NCBI GenBank assembly: GCA_945860705.1
Contig: CAMART010000001.1
Location: 119,486 to 183,485, forward strand
DNA length: 64,000 nucleotides
Reading direction: 5' to 3'
Source: Chitinophaga pinensis
GTDB taxonomy: Bacteria; Bacteroidota; Bacteroidia; Chitinophagales; CAMDFR01
Shown here: positions 12,969 to 49,646 of the stretch, piece after piece
Numbering within the stretch: position 1 is the stretch's first letter
How the letters are laid out: each line of letters starts with the position of its first letter
Made by a program: the position numbers and the translations under genes
Notes under the pieces: generated by a model
Database searches by the model: none
Told to the model about the DNA's origin: nothing
What the model saw: only the letters and a program-made list of their open reading frames with translations

Positions 12969-15203
12969 ATGTTTCAAATAAAGAATACTGATTTTTGGAG
13001 TGTGTTTAAATTGTTTCAAAGAATCAATTTAGGCATTTTATTGTTTTTATTTATACTCTTCATATTGGTGAAAGTAGGTGCTTTTGGATATATGCCTGAT
13101 CTAGAAGAAATAAAAAATCCAACTAAAAATCTTGCCACTAATGTATACACTTCTGACTATGAACTTTTAGGTTCGTATTTTATACAAAACAGAACAGAGG
13201 TAAAATATGATGATCTTTCTCCTTGGTTAATAAAAGCCTTAGTAGCAACTGAAGATAAACGATTTTATGAGCATTGTGGTATCGATTTTAAAGGGATGTT
13301 TAGAGCGATTTTATTTTTAGGTACTCAAGGTGGTGGTAGCACGCTTACTCAACAAACTGCTAAAAATTTATTTTACGAAAATGAAGGACAAAATAAATTT
13401 CAACGCTTAATTCAAAAACTAAAAGAACAAGTTATAGCTATTCAACTTGAGAGAAATTTTAGTAAGGAAGAAATCATAGCGCTATACTTTAATACGGTTT
13501 CTTTTAACAATAATGCTTTTGGAATAAAGACTGCTGCAAAAACTTATTTTAACAAAAGTCAAAAAAAATTAACTGTAGAAGAAGCTTCTATGCTTGTGGG
13601 TATGCTCAAAGGCCCGTCGTTATACAATCCAAAAAGAAATCCAAAAACGACATTGAATAGAAGAAACACTGTAATAGAATTGATGCAAGAGCAAGAAATA
13701 TTGACTCTTGCTCAATCGGACTCCATAAAAAAAATAGCAATAAAGCTTGACTATAGAGGCAATAAAAGAGATGATGGATTGGGTACATTTTTTAGAGATC
13801 AATTATTTATCGATTTAAAAAAATGGACAGAAACACATAAAAAACCTGATGGCTCTAAGTATAGCATAAATACGGATGGTCTTCAAGTGTATACTACTAT
13901 CAACTATAAAATGCAACAATATGCCGAAGATGCAACAACCAGTCATTTGAAAAAAATGCAAACTCAGTTTTTTAGAGAATGGCGTGGTAAAGAACCTTGG
14001 AAAGCTACTGGCGACAGATCTAATCCAAAGTTGATAGATAAAATGATTAAAAAAACGGATGCATATAAAGAGTTACAAGCAAAAGGTTTAGACGAAAAAG
14101 AAATTCAAGAAGAACTCTCTAAAAAAAGAGCTATGACTATTTTTACTTGGGCTGGTGATAGAGATACGCAGTTTAGCATATATGATTCATTGAAATATTA
14201 TGCACAACAACTACAAACTGGATTTGTAGTGTTAGACCCAAGAGATGGAGCTATCAAAGCATGGGTAGGTGGTGCTGATTTTACCTACTCTCAAAACGAT
14301 CATGTACGTATAGGTACCAAAAGACAAGTAGGTAGTACCATGAAACCTTTTTTATATGCAGCAGCTATGGATAAGGGATTGACTCCTGAAAGCACCGTGC
14401 CTTATTCTTGTCCTCAAATACCTGGTGATGCTGAGTGGTGTCCAAAAGGTACTGGAAAATGGGCAGAAGGAGAAATGGTATCACTTCGTGAAGGATTGAA
14501 AGCATCTGATAACTTAATAGCAGCTCAAGTAATGAAAGAAGTTGGAGCAGCGGCTGTTGTGGCATTAGCAAAAAGATGTAATATTACTTCGCACCTAGAT
14601 GAAGTACCCGCATTAGCACTAGGTGTAAGCGATATCTCTGTGATAGAAATGGCCGGAGCATATACTGCATTTGCAAATAGAGGTATCTATTCAAAACCCT
14701 ACTATATAACCCGTATCACTGATAAAGATGGACATGTATTGGATGAGTTTTTCCCACAGCGCTCCAATGTACTGAGTGAAAAAACTGTATATCAAGTAGT
14801 GAGTATGATGCGTGGTGTAGTGACGGGTGGTACTGCCACATCACTAGGCAAAACTTATGGACTTAAAATGACTATTGCAGGTAAAACTGGTACCACACAA
14901 AGCAATACAGATGCGTGGTTTGTAGGATTCACTCCAGAGCTTCTCGGTATAGTGTGGGTAGGTTGTGATGAACCAAGTTCTAGATTTGCTACTACTGCTA
15001 GTGGACAAGGTGCTGTTGCAGCTATGCCTATTTGGGGTAAATTTTTCAGTAAAGCATATAGCGATAGAACTCTTAAACTCGATAGAAAAGCGAGCTTTAA
15101 AACACCTGAAGGATACACTTCTGATAGTACGGGAGTTCTGCGCTCTATATTTGCAGATACTGCCACAGTTTCCGAAAGTGCTGAAGACATAGTAGGTTTT
15201 TAG
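12969..15203 (+). CDS. mrcA: Penicillin-binding protein 1A (bifunctional transglycosylase/transpeptidase)
   Basis: 744 aa; GT51 motifs 'EDKRFYEHCGID','GGSTLTQQ'; transpeptidase 'STMKP', 'SDN', 'KTGTT'. Confidence 0.9.
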   Translation: MFQIKNTDFWSVFKLFQRINLGILLFLFILFILVKVGAFGYMPDLEEIKNPTKNLATNVYTSDYELLGSYFIQNRTEVKYDDLSPWLIKALVATEDKRFYEHCGIDFKGMFRAILFLGTQGGGSTLTQQTAKNLFYENEGQNKFQRLIQKLKEQVIAIQLERNFSKEEIIALYFNTVSFNNNAFGIKTAAKTYFNKSQKKLTVEEASMLVGMLKGPSLYNPKRNPKTTLNRRNTVIELMQEQEILTLAQSDSIKKIAIKLDYRGNKRDDGLGTFFRDQLFIDLKKWTETHKKPDGSKYSINTDGLQVYTTINYKMQQYAEDATTSHLKKMQTQFFREWRGKEPWKATGDRSNPKLIDKMIKKTDAYKELQAKGLDEKEIQEELSKKRAMTIFTWAGDRDTQFSIYDSLKYYAQQLQTGFVVLDPRDGAIKAWVGGADFTYSQNDHVRIGTKRQVGSTMKPFLYAAAMDKGLTPESTVPYSCPQIPGDAEWCPKGTGKWAEGEMVSLREGLKASDNLIAAQVMKEVGAAAVVALAKRCNITSHLDEVPALALGVSDISVIEMAGAYTAFANRGIYSKPYYITRITDKDGHVLDEFFPQRSNVLSEKTVYQVVSMMRGVVTGGTATSLGKTYGLKMTIAGKTGTTQSNTDAWFVGFTPELLGIVWVGCDEPSSRFATTASGQGAVAAMPIWGKFFSKAYSDRTLKLDRKASFKTPEGYTSDSTGVLRSIFADTATVSESAEDIVGF

Positions 15204-34242: not shown

Positions 34243-35547
34243 ATGAAAAAGAAAATACTTTTTATTGCTTTAGTTTTTTGTTTTACTGTTCAGACTTTAG
34301 TGGCACAAAATAGATTTCATCCTTGGGGAATTGGGGTTAGTTATAATGCTACAACGATGGAAGGATTGCTTCAAAGAAATAAATTTCAATTTCGAAACTA
34401 CACTGGAGGAATAAAACTACATGTAGCCAGATATATATCTCCTTCTTTCAATGCTAGACTAGAAGGCGCTTATAGCAATTTATTTTATCCATCTGTTACC
34501 AATTATCCTCAATACGAAAAAGGTATTTTTAAGCAACAAAACTTTTTTGAATCTTCATTTTTATTTGAATACAAATTAAACAACAATTATGTACTTAAAG
34601 AAGATAGCTATATACAACCTTATTTGTTTTTAGGATTTGGAACGAACAATATGAACAAAGATTGGAATACTTTTTTTCCATTTGGTGTAGGGCTCAAACT
34701 AAAATGTACAAAATGGCTAGCTATCAATTTAGAAACTTCTATGAAAGTAAATATAGATAACTCATTTACTTACTTACAACACAATGCAGGATTTGTATTC
34801 AATCTAGGTAAACAAGTTTATAAGAAAAATGGAGCTCAATCTAAAGTGAAAAACGACTTGAAAGATTTGAATACTTCTTCTATCATAGATACTGATAAAG
34901 ACGGCATTGCTGATGCTCAGGATGAATGTCCATTTGTAGCTGGGATTAGCTCATTGGCTGGTTGTCCAGATACTGACGGAGATGGTGTGGCTGATAGCAA
35001 AGATTTATGTCCTAATGAAAAAGGCACAATAGAAAATAATGGATGTTTGCCTAAATCACTAGACTCTGATAAAGATGGTATAGCAGACAATGATGATAAG
35101 TGTCCTTATGAAGCAGGTGTAGCTCAAAATAATGGTTGTCCAATACCGGTTATAGACCAAATAGCAACTGAAATAGTAACAACAACAAAGGAAACAACTA
35201 CTTTTATAAATAATACTACTAATGGTTTAGAATTGTTTTATATAGTAGCTGACGCAAAACTAACTGATGAACATAAAAAACAATTAGATGCATTTGCGTT
35301 ATCTATTTTGAATACAAACTATAAAAAAATAAAAATAAATGGCTATACAAGTAATACAGGTACTGATGCTATAAATATAAAATTATCAATGGATAGAGCT
35401 ATCAATGTTATGAATTTTCTTACATCTAAAGGAATAAATATTGGTAAAATAGGCACGTATGGCTATGGTCCTTATAGTGCTAAATATAACAATAGCGTTC
35501 CAAGCGAATCTATAAAAAATCAACGAGTAGAATTAATAGTGGAATAA
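34243..35547 (+). CDS. OmpA-family outer membrane protein with thrombospondin type-3 (calcium-binding) repeats
   Basis: 434 aa with signal peptide. Repeated 'DTDKDGIADAQDECP', 'DTDGDGVADSKDLCP', 'DSDKDGIADNDDKCP'. C-terminal OmpA-like domain ('NQRVELIV'). Confidence 0.8.
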   Translation: MKKKILFIALVFCFTVQTLVAQNRFHPWGIGVSYNATTMEGLLQRNKFQFRNYTGGIKLHVARYISPSFNARLEGAYSNLFYPSVTNYPQYEKGIFKQQNFFESSFLFEYKLNNNYVLKEDSYIQPYLFLGFGTNNMNKDWNTFFPFGVGLKLKCTKWLAINLETSMKVNIDNSFTYLQHNAGFVFNLGKQVYKKNGAQSKVKNDLKDLNTSSIIDTDKDGIADAQDECPFVAGISSLAGCPDTDGDGVADSKDLCPNEKGTIENNGCLPKSLDSDKDGIADNDDKCPYEAGVAQNNGCPIPVIDQIATEIVTTTKETTTFINNTTNGLELFYIVADAKLTDEHKKQLDAFALSILNTNYKKIKINGYTSNTGTDAINIKLSMDRAINVMNFLTSKGINIGKIGTYGYGPYSAKYNNSVPSESIKNQRVELIVE

Positions 35548-35743
35548 AAAAAATTCGTACTATTATATATGCTTTTAGAAAAACGCTACAATACTTCAGT
35601 TAAAAGACATAATGCATAAACTATTGCATGGAGAATTATAGGCTATATATAAAATCCATAACATGGATTATTTATTAAAAGTGAGCTTATAAAAGGATTT
35701 AAAATTTGAGAATTTATAAAAATAGTATATAGCGAAAAGTATC

Positions 35744-36037
35744 TTGAAAAAAGGTGGACAAATATATATAATAACTAATAGCACTAATACTGTTCTATAT
35801 GTAGGAGTTACATCAGATCTTAAAAATAGAATATATCAGCATAAAACTAAACATTATCCAAATTCTTTTTCAGCTAAGTACAATTGTACTAAACTTGTAT
35901 ATTATCAAAATTTTTCTTCTATAGTAGAAGCAATCGCATTCGAAAAAAAAATCAAAGCTGGTAGTAGAGCAAAAAAGATAGAACTTATTAATAGCATGAA
36001 TACTGCGTGGAATGATTTGTACGAGGAGATATTATAA
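35744..36037 (+). CDS. GIY-YIG nuclease family protein (small, stand-alone)
   Basis: 97 aa; 'IYIITNSTNTVLYVGVTSDLKNRIYQHK' (GIY...YVG) and 'AIAFEKKIK' Glu motif; TTG start per track. Confidence 0.8.
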   Translation: MKKGGQIYIITNSTNTVLYVGVTSDLKNRIYQHKTKHYPNSFSAKYNCTKLVYYQNFSSIVEAIAFEKKIKAGSRAKKIELINSMNTAWNDLYEEIL

Positions 36038-36126
36038 GCGTCATATGAATGCTTCTTTATAAAGCATCACTAAAAAGAATTCATCACAACCAGCTCATCA
36101 CATCACACACATCACAATCGGCTCGT

Positions 36127-36180
36127 CATTGCGAGATTTGTTGCTGGCTTGGGGCAACAAAACGAAGCAATCTCACAATG
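36127..36180. repeat. Long nested palindrome CATTGCGAGATT-[TTGTTGC..GCAACAA]-AATCTCACAATG
   Basis: Read directly; G/C-rich island about 90 bp downstream of the GIY-YIG gene. Confidence 0.8.
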
Positions 36181-36204
36181 CATTCGTCTTATCTAGTTGT
36201 GCTT

Positions 36205-36545
36205 AGGCTTTGTGAGATTGCCACGTGAGCCGAAAGCAAAGGCTCACTCACAATGACAAGCCGGTGGGAATGACGAGTTCGGCGATGAGGCTTCGTGGGA
36301 TTGCTTCGTGCCTCGCAATGACGAGCTGTGATGAGGCTTTGTGGGATTACCACGTGAGCCGAAAGCCAAGGCTCACTCACAATGACAAGCCGGTGGGAAT
36401 TACGAGTTCGGCGATGAGGCTTCGTGGGATTGCTTCGTGCCTCGCAATGACGAGCTGTGATGAGGCTTTGTGGGATTACCACGTGAGCCGAAAGCCAAGG
36501 CTCACTCACAATGACGAGGCGGTGAGGAATGACGAGTCAAGATAG
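36205..36545. repeat. 129-bp tandem repeat, about 2.6 copies, each unit containing internal hairpins
   Basis: Unit starts at 36205, 36334 and 36463 (anchor AGGCTTTGTG). Copies 2 and 3 are near-identical. Each unit has an internal stem GTGAGCC-N9-GGCTCAC and an ATTGC..GCAAT segment. Confidence 0.9.
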
Positions 36546-36907
36546 GCTTCGTGGGATTTATGCCTTTGGCAGACAGGTGCCAAGTGAAGCAAAAAGTAAA
36601 GCTCTCTAGTGTTAATGAGATGAAAGGAATAATGAACTGTTGATTAAGTTAGACAATTCTTTTTTTTATATTATTTTATTATTTATTAATAATCAATTAT
36701 ATATGTAATTAACTGAAAATAAATGAAATTTGTGTATACTAAACACATCATGTTGTATAAAATTTGTTTTAAAAAATCTATATGTTGTAACATTATTACG
36801 TGTACTTTCGTATCAGATTTACAACTTAACCTATAATGCTAGAAGATATAGAAAAACTACCGTTTCATACTAATTAAACTCTCGATCAAATTCAGGAGCT
36901 GGAAGCT

Positions 36908-38641
36908 ATGAAGCTTTCTGTAGAAGAGCTAGTAAATAAAGACCCACAAGCCGCTCTTGAAAAAAGTGAGGAGTATATTTTGCTTTCTAAAAAATATTTA
37001 GCTCAAGAACATTTAGCTAATTTTTTATACTTATATGCCGCTCTACATTATCTAACAGGTAAAAATAGTGACGCACTTGAATATAGTAAAATGGCTATAA
37101 AATTTACTAAAAACATTGAGCTGAATCACAAAATACATATCTTACTAGGTGCAATTTACACTTATTTTGGGGAGTTTGATAAAGCACTTGAGGTATATGA
37201 TTTTGCCATAAAGACTAATAATAACTCTTCTACTTCTACTGTTTATAATAATATAGCGGCTATATATTTTAAACAAAAAAACTATAATGAAGCTATTCAA
37301 TATTTAAATAAAGCATTGGAACTTTCAGATGGAAATATTTCATTAATTTTATTAATACTAAACAATATTGGAAGAGCTTATATAGAGCTTAAAGATCTTG
37401 AAAATGCTGAACCTATTTTACTAAAAGTTATAGAAATACTTAATGAGACTGAAAACCCTACTCAAGAAATGATAAACAGTCTAAATATCGGCTTACTCTA
37501 TTATGAACAAGAGCGATATCCAGAAGCCTATTCAAAATTATTTGATGCTTATGTAAAATGTAAAGAGCTTGATTTAAAAAATAATTTGTACTCAGCTACT
37601 TTATTTCTTGCACATGCATGTACTAAAAATAATAAACAAGACCAAGCAAATGCCTATTATCTAGAAACACTAGATTTGATGCGCAATTTAGATAATAGAT
37701 TGTATATAGATGCTCTTAAGTCTTATCTTGATTTTTTAGTTCAACAACAAGATTTTGAACGATGTACTACCTTTTTTATTGAATATACAGAGCTCAAAGA
37801 ACTAATAATAAGAGAAGATAAGGAAAAAGAAATTAGTGCTTTGACTGTAAAATTTCAAAATACGGAGCAAAAACTAGAAATAGACAAACTCAATAAAGAA
37901 AAAGAATTTCAAAAACAACTCCTTGCTCAGGCGGAAGAGGTAAAACGAACTAATGAAAAACTTTTAGAAATCAATCAAAATCTATCTGATTTTTCTTATG
38001 CACTTAGCCATGATATCCGCACTCCTATTCGTCAGCTAGCTGGTTTTGGTTCTATGATCAAAAACAAAAATTATGCTGGTAAAGAGGAACTACTCAAACA
38101 AGACTTAAACTATATATATGATGCTGCTAAGAAGGCTGATACTATGATACAAGAATTGCACAAATTTGCTCTAGTGGGTATACAAGAAGATAAATTTATT
38201 GATATTGATACCAATGACGCTCTTAAAGATGCTATAGGCAATCTTTCATCGCTTATTGCAGACAGTCAAGCCCAAATAGATATATTGCATCCACTTCCTA
38301 TATTAAAAGGCGAAAAAACGCTTATCACTCAGCTCTTTCAAAACCTATTAGGCAATGCCATAAAATACATACAAAAAGAAATTACACCTAGAATAGAAAT
38401 AGATTATCAACTTATAAATGATAAAAAACAAATCACCATTAAAGATAATGGGATAGGAATTCCAGTCAATGAACAGAAAGATGTTTTTAAATTATTCTCT
38501 AGAGCAACAAATAGTGGTGGGATAGAAGGGACTGGTATTGGGCTGAGCTTTTGCCACAAAATAATAAGCAAGATGCATGCGCACATACATCTTGCTTCTG
38601 AAGGTACCAACTTAGGTACTACTGTAATTTTAGAATTTTAA
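36908..38641 (+). CDS. TPR-repeat sensor histidine kinase (cytoplasmic, orphan)
   Basis: 577 aa. N-terminal TPR-like repeats, a coiled coil, H-box 'SHDIRTPIRQL', N-box 'LLGNAIKY' and G-box 'GTGIGLSF'. There is no adjacent response regulator. Confidence 0.8.
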   Translation: MKLSVEELVNKDPQAALEKSEEYILLSKKYLAQEHLANFLYLYAALHYLTGKNSDALEYSKMAIKFTKNIELNHKIHILLGAIYTYFGEFDKALEVYDFAIKTNNNSSTSTVYNNIAAIYFKQKNYNEAIQYLNKALELSDGNISLILLILNNIGRAYIELKDLENAEPILLKVIEILNETENPTQEMINSLNIGLLYYEQERYPEAYSKLFDAYVKCKELDLKNNLYSATLFLAHACTKNNKQDQANAYYLETLDLMRNLDNRLYIDALKSYLDFLVQQQDFERCTTFFIEYTELKELIIREDKEKEISALTVKFQNTEQKLEIDKLNKEKEFQKQLLAQAEEVKRTNEKLLEINQNLSDFSYALSHDIRTPIRQLAGFGSMIKNKNYAGKEELLKQDLNYIYDAAKKADTMIQELHKFALVGIQEDKFIDIDTNDALKDAIGNLSSLIADSQAQIDILHPLPILKGEKTLITQLFQNLLGNAIKYIQKEITPRIEIDYQLINDKKQITIKDNGIGIPVNEQKDVFKLFSRATNSGGIEGTGIGLSFCHKIISKMHAHIHLASEGTNLGTTVILEF

Positions 38642-48944: not shown

Positions 48945-49646
48945 ATGGAGTATAACTCAGCACGAAATGTACTAGTAATGAAAGAGTACGGAAGAAACGT
49001 ACAAAACCTTATAAACCTTGCTATAGCAGAGCCAGACAGAGAAAAAAGAAATCGTATGGTGAAAAGCATCATCGATGTGATGGGTCAACTAAATCCACAC
49101 CTCAGAAATACCGAAGACTACAAACACAAACTTTGGGATCACTTATTTTTAATGTCAGATTTTAAACTAGATGCTGATAGTCCATATCCACTTCCAGAAA
49201 AAGAAGTATTGATGCGTAAGCCAGATCCGCTTACTTATCCTCAGACTCGATTTAAACATAGGTCTTATGGTAAATTATTGATGAAGATGGTACAGAAAGC
49301 AGTAGCAGAAGAAAACACAGAGAAAAAAGCACTCATCACTAAAGTAATTGGCGACTATATAAAAGTAGTTCATACCAACTGGATAAAAGAAAACGTAAGT
49401 GATGAAAGTGTGAAAGTAGAAATAAAAACTATCTCTGATGGTCAGCTAGAGCTCAGTGAAGATATGCAATTAAGCAAAATATTTGTACAAAGAACCAACA
49501 ATAACAACAACAATAATAACCGAAATAACAATAACCGAAACAACAACAATAACCGAAACAACAACAATAACCGAAACAACAATAACAATAATCGCAGACC
49601 AAACAATAATAACAATAACCGAAACAATAATAACAATGTCAAATAA
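48945..49646 (+). CDS. DUF4290-like protein with Asn/Arg low-complexity C-terminal tail
   Basis: 233 aa; 'EYGRNVQNLI' N-terminus; lies immediately upstream of murA. The last ~55 residues are N/R repeats (NNNNNNNRNNNNRNNNNNR...). Confidence 0.65.
   Translation: MEYNSARNVLVMKEYGRNVQNLINLAIAEPDREKRNRMVKSIIDVMGQLNPHLRNTEDYKHKLWDHLFLMSDFKLDADSPYPLPEKEVLMRKPDPLTYPQTRFKHRSYGKLLMKMVQKAVAEENTEKKALITKVIGDYIKVVHTNWIKENVSDESVKVEIKTISDGQLELSEDMQLSKIFVQRTNNNNNNNNRNNNNRNNNNNRNNNNNRNNNNNNRRPNNNNNNRNNNNNVK
49494..49636 (+). repeat. Imperfect short tandem repeat (AAC/AAT)n-CGA, including two perfect 18-nt units
   Basis: Read directly; open in all three plus-strand frames and in two minus-strand frames, per the ORF track. 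Confidence 0.85.

Follow-up and report, generated by a model that had tools for sequence, protein, structure and literature searches.

A probable Ssn/SRM locus, with a single-domain GIY-YIG nuclease gene and oriented hairpin repeats, in an uncultured member of the Bacteroidota

A 64,000-nucleotide stretch of contig CAMART010000001.1 (assembly GCA_945860705.1, assigned to Chitinophaga pinensis), to which we refer as the window, contains a short gene for a GIY-YIG nuclease followed by a compact block of G+C-rich palindromes and tandem repeats. Comparative analysis makes it very likely that this locus is an Ssn/SRM system, that is, an Ssn-family GIY-YIG endonuclease gene with, downstream of it, a group of cognate, oriented hairpin repeats of the kind known as Ssn-related motifs (SRM). 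The ssn-like gene occupies positions 35744..36037 on the + strand, starts with TTG, and encodes the single-domain protein of 97 aa that had been predicted there from the list of open reading frames (ORFs). Pfam assigns the GIY-YIG family (PF01541) to residues 6-78 with E=1.6e-16 and finds no further domain, the sole other match, T5orf172, overlapping the same stretch. Protein searches return hundreds to thousands of homologues of 96-101 aa, mostly from Bacteroidota, and Y8, Y19, and E67 are invariant among 26 of them in a family alignment, as are R29 and H33. A large share of the homologues in the protein hit tables sit on contigs of 0.5-1.5 kb, which fits assembly breaks at flanking arrays and suggests that the family is under-represented in binned genomes.

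Downstream of the gene the base composition changes in the manner described in the original prediction, with G+C content rising from 0.23-0.31 outside to 0.50-0.545 across 36100-36600. The 300-bp stretch 36301-36600 has the highest G+C content of the 64 kb (0.527, the runner-up being 0.447), and the G+C-rich block itself (36124-36560) starts ~90 bp 3' of the gene. Six oriented units are present, with the pattern (C)GTC-ATTGY-GAG-[variable apical part]-CGWR-RYAAT-C, all of them within 480 bp downstream of the gene and all holding both the flanking GTC and the 3' C; one has its sense sequence on the + strand, the other five on the - strand. Unit 1, read by motif at 36125..36172 on the + strand (48 nt), is the nested palindrome noticed earlier and has the form GTC-ATTGC-GAG-[8-bp apical hairpin TTTGTTGC/GCAACAAA]-CGAA-GCAAT-C, the apical stem being predicted at -9.9 kcal/mol (z=-2.0) when folded as DNA. 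A repeat-family search places three imperfect 14-nt 'CATCACA...' direct repeats in its 5' flank (36082..36128, + strand), the zone in which, by analogy with PMC11893778, an Ssn-type nick would be expected, and a CATCACA-GCTC flank also precedes the short units on the - strand.

The other five units lie on the - strand within a 129-bp tandem array at 36198..36558 (93% matches, score 622 in Tandem Repeats Finder), whose length varies among strains. The predicted period of this array stands, but its copy number is 2.8 rather than 2.6; copies 1 and 2 are 95% identical, and copy 3 is degenerate (60%). Each period comprises one long unit, one half-site, and one short unit. The long units (42 nt) are found at 36216..36257, 36345..36386, and 36474..36515. 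Copy 1 has the form GTC-ATTGT-GAG-[GTGAGCC-N9-GGCTCAC region]-CGTG-GCAAT-C with a DNA fold of z=-2.5, and in copy 2 the 3' arm reads GTAAT, giving two G.T pairs in the outer stem. The short units (24 nt; motif read) are found at 36299..36322 and 36428..36451, the former being GTCATTGCGAG-GCA-CGAAGCAATC with a GCA triloop, and they equal in length the 24-nt core of the NTS repeat of Neisseria, with which they share the outer bases GTCATT...AATC. Between long and short units on the - strand lies an orphan 5' half-site, CGTCATTCCCACC (36263..36275), which lacks a 3' partner and is identical to the 5' half of the Neisseria NTS; a second copy at 36392-36404 has one mismatch. The hairpin GTGAGCC-N9-GGCTCAC, expected in every 129-bp unit by the original prediction, does occur three times (0.00 expected from shuffles), whereas GGGATTGCTTCGTGCCTCGCAATGAC, for which the same had been claimed, is present in only two of the three periods (at 36297 and 36426, again with 0.00 expected). 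Moreover, every full unit on the - strand carries the 3' extension AATCCCACRAAGCCTCATC, with five occurrences against 0.02 expected, and therefore the 129-bp period itself appears to be an old duplication of a subunit of ~64 bp consisting of a hairpin and its 3' extension.

As the period equals 43 codons, both strands of the array remain open, and the ORF list accordingly contains two mirror ORFs of 106 aa at 36189..36509 on the - strand and 36225..36545 on the + strand. They had been regarded as phantoms, and we agree that they are by-products rather than genes because the strain alleles described below differ in length by 64 bp, and so not by a whole number of codons, and because Pfam gives no family above cut-off for either of them. 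The open frames on both strands, together with the regular spacing, might nevertheless suggest a protein-coding repeat or a CRISPR-like array. Given that the 43-codon period explains both open strands, that no protein family scores above cut-off, and that the alleles differ by 64 bp, we regard the coding variant of this idea as having practically no chance of being correct, and the same applies to the CRISPR-like variant: the 129-bp period recurs in its entirety, leaving no unique spacers, and the same units occur singly elsewhere.

Comparison of the protein with SsnA of Neisseria meningitidis (NMV_0044/NMB0047), a 94-aa single-domain GIY-YIG protein (cd10448) characterized by Chenal et al. 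in 2025 (PMC11893778), marks it as a clear homologue. SsnA binds the NTS hairpin CGTCATTCCCGCGMAVGCGGGAATCYRG solely as single-stranded DNA (ssDNA) and nicks it a few nucleotides upstream, is inactive on double-stranded DNA (dsDNA), RNA, and the opposite strand, and no longer cuts when carrying the Y6A, Y17A, or E64A substitution (PMC11893778). The three bases before the NTS palindrome govern cleavage, and the C after the palindrome governs binding (PMC11893778). When the window protein is used in a tblastn search of the N. gonorrhoeae sequence NZ_CP119140.1, it finds a 94-aa ORF with E=5e-17, the threshold applied in PMC11893778 being E < 1e-10. This ORF has Y6, Y17, and E64 and is flanked by canonical NTS on both sides, and its length, residue numbering, and NTS flanks suggest that it is the orthologue of N. 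meningitidis SsnA. BLASTP aligns the two proteins with 42% identity over 91 aa (E=9e-27), placing Y8, Y19, and E67 of the window protein opposite Y6, Y17, and E64 of SsnA, and hhalign gives a probability of 99.7% for the window protein and the gonococcal orthologue. The connection with SsnA was made through mislabelled gonococcal chromosomes because a second large protein search, using the protein of a homologous locus with NTS-like flanks (L070), gave matches only in Bacteroidota and no named Neisseria protein. PLSDB lists two 2.17-Mb N. gonorrhoeae chromosomes, NZ_CP119140.1 and NZ_CP119142.1, as plasmids, and the SsnA orthologue they share (L093; NZ_CP119140.1 1880787-1884056) is unannotated in the PLSDB table and is flanked by canonical NTS in the layout [+ - gene + + - ...].

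Other GIY-YIG proteins are more remote. A profile search of the PDB with the window protein identifies 1zg2 (UPF0213, BH0048) as the only solved relative (E=8.4e-6, distant), and no SsnA structure was found in the PDB by sequence profile. UPF0213/YhbQ proteins resemble the window protein in size and in having a single GIY-YIG domain, but they are far more distant from it than SsnA and have no known cognate repeat. Homing endonucleases of the I-TevI type, like UvrC and Slx1, have the catalytic GIY-YIG core in common with the window protein; they differ in having extra DNA-binding domains or partners and dsDNA or branched DNA substrates, whereas the window protein is a bare domain. This bears on the idea that the ORF is a free-standing GIY-YIG homing endonuclease, or the remnant of one, and that the repeats are unrelated junk or degraded target sites. 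Weak matches to TIGR01453 (E=2e-5, far below cut-off), the PADLOC 'HEase' model (E=8e-4), and homing-endonuclease families in PHROGs can be cited in its favor, but these span only the shared catalytic core, and NCBIfam, PADLOC, and PHROGs yield only sub-threshold matches to that core, NCBIfam being without a model specific to the protein. In addition, the protein is a single domain of 97 aa with no DNA-binding extension, it is not located in an intron or phage, it is far closer to SsnA, and the association of homologous genes with repeats is reproduced in 53 of 80 genomes. We therefore consider a homing endonuclease to be a highly improbable explanation.

The host genome is represented here by the 64-kb window, and our counts of association and dispersal come from other genomes and metagenomes. 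We fetched 80 loci containing homologues from species-representative genomes, among them isolates of Anabaena, Kangiella, and Jiella, and searched them for the unit motif GTCATTRYG-N4-60-RYAATC, a unit being counted as near the gene when it lies within 500 bp of the homologue. There are 173 matches near the gene (2.23 per kb) and 59 farther away (0.052 per kb), an enrichment of ~43-fold across these 80 genomes. Hence the proposal that a nuclease is paired here with cognate repeats holds, as does the positional association that had been suggested as its check. A unit is found near the gene at 53 of the 80 loci, and units are found on both sides at 35. Similarly, the 8-mer GTCATTGC or its complement occurs about five times per kb in the 200 bp that adjoin the gene on each side and ~0.1 times per kb beyond 1 kb. 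The same repeat class and gene occur together in isolates across phyla (Chryseobacterium, Anabaena, and Kangiella), with a related cassette in Jiella that has a different stem.

In its simplest layout, seen for example at L045, L056, L064, L026, and L076, the gene lies between inverted repeats of ~32 nt, GTCATTGCGAGGAGCGAAGCGACGAAGCAATC on one side and the reverse complement on the other, giving a cassette of ~420 bp. When only the nearest units are counted, [+ gene -] is the commonest arrangement (25/81 loci), and [+- gene +-] is found at 12/81. The arrangement in the window, with nothing upstream and [+ - - ...] downstream, recurs in Anabaena (L063 and L071). At L035 (9843-10430) the gene is bracketed by unit pairs with two different stems, ATGCT on the + strand and ATTCT on the - strand, and a divergent second paralogue without detected units lies 4.2 kb away (14542-14829). 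At L070 (9780-10550) a Chitinophagaceae Ssn homologue is accompanied by NTS-like units (cgtcattcccgaaggcgggaatctg) within a composite repeat of ~110 bp that holds a second palindrome (gatgcccaatcaagttgggcatgacg).

Because folding single units as DNA gave the outer hairpin no thermodynamic support, we relied instead on covariation. Each CGTCA located no more than 500 bp from a gene served as an anchor, and the reverse complement of the next 5-mer, followed by C, was sought 3-70 nt downstream. Paired arms are found for 170 of 326 anchors, compared with 10.9 +/- 2.6 (maximum 18) when arms are swapped between anchors, and 17 stem types are seen. The test is non-circular and indicates that the stem pairs. 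Alternative stems occupying the same frame include ATCGC/GCGAT (L002 and L005), ATGCT/AGCAT (L035), ATTCT/AGAAT (L025), ATTTC/GAAAT (L050), ACCCTGAA/TTCAGGGT (L021), ATCCCGG/CCGGGAT (L065), and the near-canonical Neisseria stem ATTCCCGC/GCGGGAAT (L070). Among units in 48 other genomes that were located by stem and interior alone, the bases before the stem are G in 157/163, T in 160/163, and C in 158/163, and the base after the stem is C in 156/163; these conserved flanking bases, GTC and C, coincide with the positions critical for cleavage and binding in PMC11893778.

The commonest interiors are ATTGC-GAG-C-GNA-G-CGA-A-GCAAT (26 nt), ATTGC-GAG-GAG-C-GAA-G-CGA-CGA-A-GCAAT (32 nt), and ATTGC-GAG-GCA-CGA-A-GCAAT (24 nt), and the apical inserts are mostly CGAAG, CGCAG, CGTAG, GCA, or GAA. 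A plausible fold for this GAG/CGA class would have a 5-bp stem, a bulged A, one or two tandem sheared G.A modules each closed by a G-C pair, and a GNA triloop. Passages in PMC13037366 and PMC3201870 describe GCGNAGC mini-hairpins and d(GNA) triloops as unusually stable in DNA.

This last property is relevant to whether the hairpins might instead act as RNA, as terminators, mRNA stabilizers, or a small RNA, with the adjoining GIY-YIG gene being what they regulate. Enterobacterial REP (repetitive extragenic palindromic) elements affect mRNA stability, which speaks for such a role. The units are located in the 3' region of the gene with no terminator in between, and a consensus scan flags three terminator-like sites in the array when 0.8 are expected; the flagged sites, however, are parts of units with weak T tails. 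Rfam gives no match anywhere in the window at gathering thresholds, nor in 35500-36950 even at E<=10. Furthermore, units of either orientation surround the gene, solo copies are located at a great distance from all homologues, the stability of GNA triloops and GCGNAGC apical loops is documented for DNA in the passages just cited, and SsnA does not bind RNA (PMC11893778). A function in RNA is thus very unlikely.

Units are widely dispersed. The gene-centred loci contain 58 that are separated from the nearest homologue by more than 500 bp, whereas ~2 would be expected by chance (an order-of-magnitude estimate). We also scanned a metagenome collection for GTCATTGCGAG-N3-30-CGAAGCAATC, obtaining a repeat-centred sample of 120 loci and 128 clusters. 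An Ssn homologue is present within 500 bp of only 2 of these clusters. Another 66 lie too near a contig end to be classified, and the remaining 60 are clearly solo, so that 60 of the 62 resolvable clusters are solo, as is the case for NTS and REP elements. Units are depleted from long open frames (48% versus 88% background), and head-to-head pairs are common. A further composite was found at L198 (3908-4975), where a 121-bp tandem array of 8.8 copies (97% matches) has alternating - and + units and the 10.5-kb locus contains no Ssn homologue. Tandem composites like that of the window are therefore a normal state of the repeat family. Across the family, hairpins are mostly dispersed as solo or paired copies, and inverted units typically flank the one or few genes that a genome contains. 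The original prediction that palindromes of the 'cattgcgag...cgaagcaatc' type form a dispersed family beside small GIY-YIG genes is verified by the 80 loci together with the metagenome sample, and at the level of the family the repeats are not confined to one locus, while the 64 kb of the host that were examined contain one cluster.

Taken with the homology to SsnA, these observations are the basis for assigning the locus to the Ssn/SRM system. SsnA homologues across phyla are flanked by SRM (PMC11893778). The pairing of gene and repeats, the mechanism of which the original prediction had called undescribed, was in fact described in 2025 in that paper, and the window locus is a further example of it; modestly new is the GAG/CGA-module, GNA-triloop repeat class, which the published SRM string misses. 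Like the Neisseria system, the locus combines a single-domain GIY-YIG protein of ~95 aa having the same catalytic residues with oriented hairpins beside the gene that have GTC before the stem and C after it. At the level of the family, the many solo copies, mostly outside long ORFs, are also shared, as is the repeat-gene-repeat layout seen in relatives. The two differ in that the window class has ATTGC + (GAG)n-C-GNA-G-(CGA)n + GCAAT in place of the perfect ATTCCCGC/GCGGGAAT palindrome of the NTS, in the restriction of the window units to the downstream side, in the composite 129-bp tandem array, and in the host, an AT-rich uncultured member of the Bacteroidota. The NTS are a subset of dRS3 (PMC11893778), and dRS3 elements of Neisseria are likewise abundant intergenic hairpin repeats clustered around particular genes, but their sequence and host differ from those of the window repeats.

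The biochemistry of SsnA proteins from Neisseria, N. elongata, N. wadsworthii, and Wolbachia (PMC11893778) suggests how such a locus might operate. Units would fold once the DNA becomes single-stranded, as it might while being replicated or repaired or on entering the cell by transformation or conjugation. The 97-aa protein would then read sequence as well as structure, recognising the stem together with the GTC that immediately precedes it and the C that immediately follows, and would nick that strand a few nucleotides upstream of the GTC; neither dsDNA nor RNA nor the complementary strand would serve as a substrate. On this scheme the one + strand unit and the five - strand units, which are evident directly from the sequence, would be the readable ones. 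The 129-bp array would have arisen by local amplification of the ~64-bp subunit, with ongoing gain and loss through slippage or unequal recombination that might be promoted by nicking. Whereas the homology, the anatomy of the motif, its association with the gene, the covariation of stems, the dispersal, and the polymorphism among strains are demonstrated, the ssDNA-specific nicking 5' of GTC, the G.A/GNA fold, the nick-promoted instability of the array, and any cellular role are inferred.

Several observations weigh against this assignment. Nearest-neighbour DNA folding gives the outer hairpin of the GAG/CGA class a z of about 0 to -0.3, compared with z=-3.1 for the NTS, and the structure proposed for the class depends on covariation together with the assumption of sheared G.A pairs and GNA triloops; a non-Watson-Crick interior is nevertheless consistent with an energy model that predicts the NTS hairpin but not that of the GAG/CGA class. 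The long units, with their G.T pairs in the outer stem, may be decaying, and there is no unit upstream of the window gene, all of them being downstream. No member of the repeat family is present in the 64 kb outside this locus; a 10-mer match at 477 was rejected as a member since it lies inside a coding gene and is at chance level. Protein similarity differs little by stem class (56.3% versus 54.8% identity, a difference reached by 39 of 2000 permutations), and the apparent covariation of protein and stem is weak and confounded by phylogeny. Finally, the published SRM search string, HGTCWYN(0-2)YYVSBRHN(0-5)WNVSBRGN(0-2)RNCYNB, has no match in the window and matches near the gene at only 2/80 loci. 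This string was built from 29 genomes and is a search tool rather than a definition of the family (PMC11893778). It does match the NTS consensus, L065, and L070, and because it finds so few of the loci, the dominant repeat class of this clade must lie outside the published motif. L065 and L070 are bridging cases, the former having CCCGG-stem SRM flanks that fit the published motif and the latter having near-canonical NTS flanks beside a protein that is 52% identical to that of the window.

The window OmpA and GIY-YIG proteins are found unchanged on many metagenome contigs, which permits strains to be compared, as the original prediction had recommended. In 10 distinct, near-identical contigs with identical OmpA and GIY-YIG proteins, the intergenic distance between the ssn-like gene and a histidine-kinase gene takes four values, 870 (window), 934, 952, and 823 bp. 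These four alleles differ by whole units, with 5 to 7 units in total, and so the arrays of near-identical strains gain and lose units. The GIY-YIG gene is kept in all 10 aligned contigs of the host species and in every contig shown. By comparison, the three nearest relatives (L094-L096; OmpA 63%, 58%, and 53% identical) keep the upstream synteny MeaB...Dtd-MazG-OmpA and have no GIY-YIG gene, no units, and downstream genes that differ from those of the window. Because these downstream genes differ as well, the cassette lies at a synteny breakpoint that provides no clean empty site. In L094-L096, unrelated convergent genes are located within 20-60 bp of OmpA (compare window 34243-36908).

These comparisons are pertinent to a reading in which the gene and its bracketing hairpins form an autonomous element resembling an insertion sequence (IS), with Ssn serving, in the manner of IS200/IS605, as a transposase or nicking enzyme that works on hairpin ends in ssDNA, and the solo units being non-autonomous derivatives like REPs or miniature inverted-repeat transposable elements (MITEs). 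It is compatible with the Ssn/SRM assignment and differs from it by claiming present-day self-mobility. In its favor, a + unit, the gene, and a - unit form the commonest arrangement, with terminal inverted repeats of ~32 nt (25/81 loci), the [+- gene +-] form adds 12/81, and the same class and gene recur across the phyla named above. The three nearest relatives lack the window cassette, which is positioned at a synteny breakpoint. In addition, the entire cassette is duplicated in tandem in an isolate (L042; 92% identity over 565 bp), a decayed second copy exists at L001, and an identical 99-aa protein, P0098, occurs with identical immediate flanks beside at least five different neighbours. Chenal et al. 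point out the IS-like NTS-ssnA-NTS layout as well as a parallel with REP elements and their RAYT transposases, and raised the same hypothesis (PMC11893778).

There is, however, no visible target-site duplication or clean empty site, and the conservation of unit flanks is limited to one C on each side. GIY-YIG enzymes hydrolyse DNA and are not known for strand transfer. The P0098 contexts are all short k141 metagenome contigs that end in repeat arrays, and because of this they may represent assembly chimeras or array recombination; protein P0017, in turn, is found at a single locus across 10 contigs. Moreover, the window gene has no upstream unit and is present in all the strain contigs. Carriage by phages is rare at most, there being no homologue in INPHARED and 10 loci in 2.9 million viral contigs of IMG/VR. 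We therefore regard mobility of the cassette as plausible but unproven, and present-day self-mobility as possible, if on balance doubtful. With the suggestion that the repeats are mobile or selfish, the IS-like architecture of relatives, the tandem duplication, and the P0098 contexts are in agreement, whereas neither a clean empty site nor a target duplication nor any transposition chemistry was found. A bolder proposal is that Ssn-SRM cassettes are a still-active, unrecognised class of ssDNA-based mobile element built on a bare GIY-YIG nuclease, that the solo hairpins are its non-autonomous progeny, and that the cross-phylum ATTGC-(GAG)n-C-GNA-G-(CGA)n-GCAAT class is a major uncharted lineage; we put this forward as speculation that is rather unlikely to be right in full.

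The analogy with REP elements and RAYT in the original prediction is apt. REP/BIME sequences and their RAYT (TnpA-REP) genes resemble the family studied here in that the repeats are short, G+C-rich, imperfect palindromes, dispersed between genes and arranged in head-to-head pairs and tandem composites, and that inverted units flank the gene for an ssDNA nuclease specific for hairpins, which is present in one or a few copies. Membership of the window locus in that family was rejected because the associated gene encodes a GIY-YIG enzyme and not a Y1 HUH transposase of the IS200/IS605 type. The Ssn enzyme is a hydrolase for which no covalent intermediate or strand transfer is expected, and the core of the Ssn-class repeat is conserved across phyla, unlike the species-specific REPs. 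IS200/IS605 elements likewise have subterminal ssDNA hairpins that are recognised by a very small nuclease acting in a strand-specific manner, but the catalytic family is another one, and Ssn-unit flanks lack a conserved target tetranucleotide. Some IS110/IS1111 elements insert at REP sequences. At L234 (726-2062), and with the same junction at L232 and L239, the gene for an IS110-family transposase (PF01548/PF02371) stops 2 bp short of a unit in which the 5' arm is GTCATTAGTAGG instead of GTCATTGCGAGG, as though an element of the IS110 type had inserted at or within that SRM unit.

The locus extends the Ssn/SRM partnership into AT-rich, uncultured Bacteroidota. Current SRM censuses are likely undercounts because the GAG/CGA repeat class is not captured by the published string. 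Modular, G.A-rich interiors with GNA triloops would explain how a 97-aa protein reads a hairpin that standard energy models do not predict, and the differences in array length among near-identical strains amount to turnover in natural populations. In Neisseria, the Ssn system reduces transformation by NTS-bearing DNA, and incoming ssDNA is trimmed in N. meningitidis (PMC11893778). The window locus opens no new field by itself; it illustrates the questions of what Ssn does outside Neisseria and whether the cassettes move, without settling either.

Two other repeat features occur in the window. Between the OmpA-family gene and the GIY-YIG gene (35610-35675) are two AT-rich palindromes, atgcataaactattgcat and aaatccataacatggattt, which are unrelated to the G+C-rich units and may be the OmpA terminator. 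AAC/AAT-rich tandem repeats with periods of 15-36 at 49496-49637 encode an Asn/Arg-rich tail (NNNNNNRNNNNR...) that forms the C-terminus of a 233-aa ORF (48945..49646), and these repeats overlap the start of the next long ORF.

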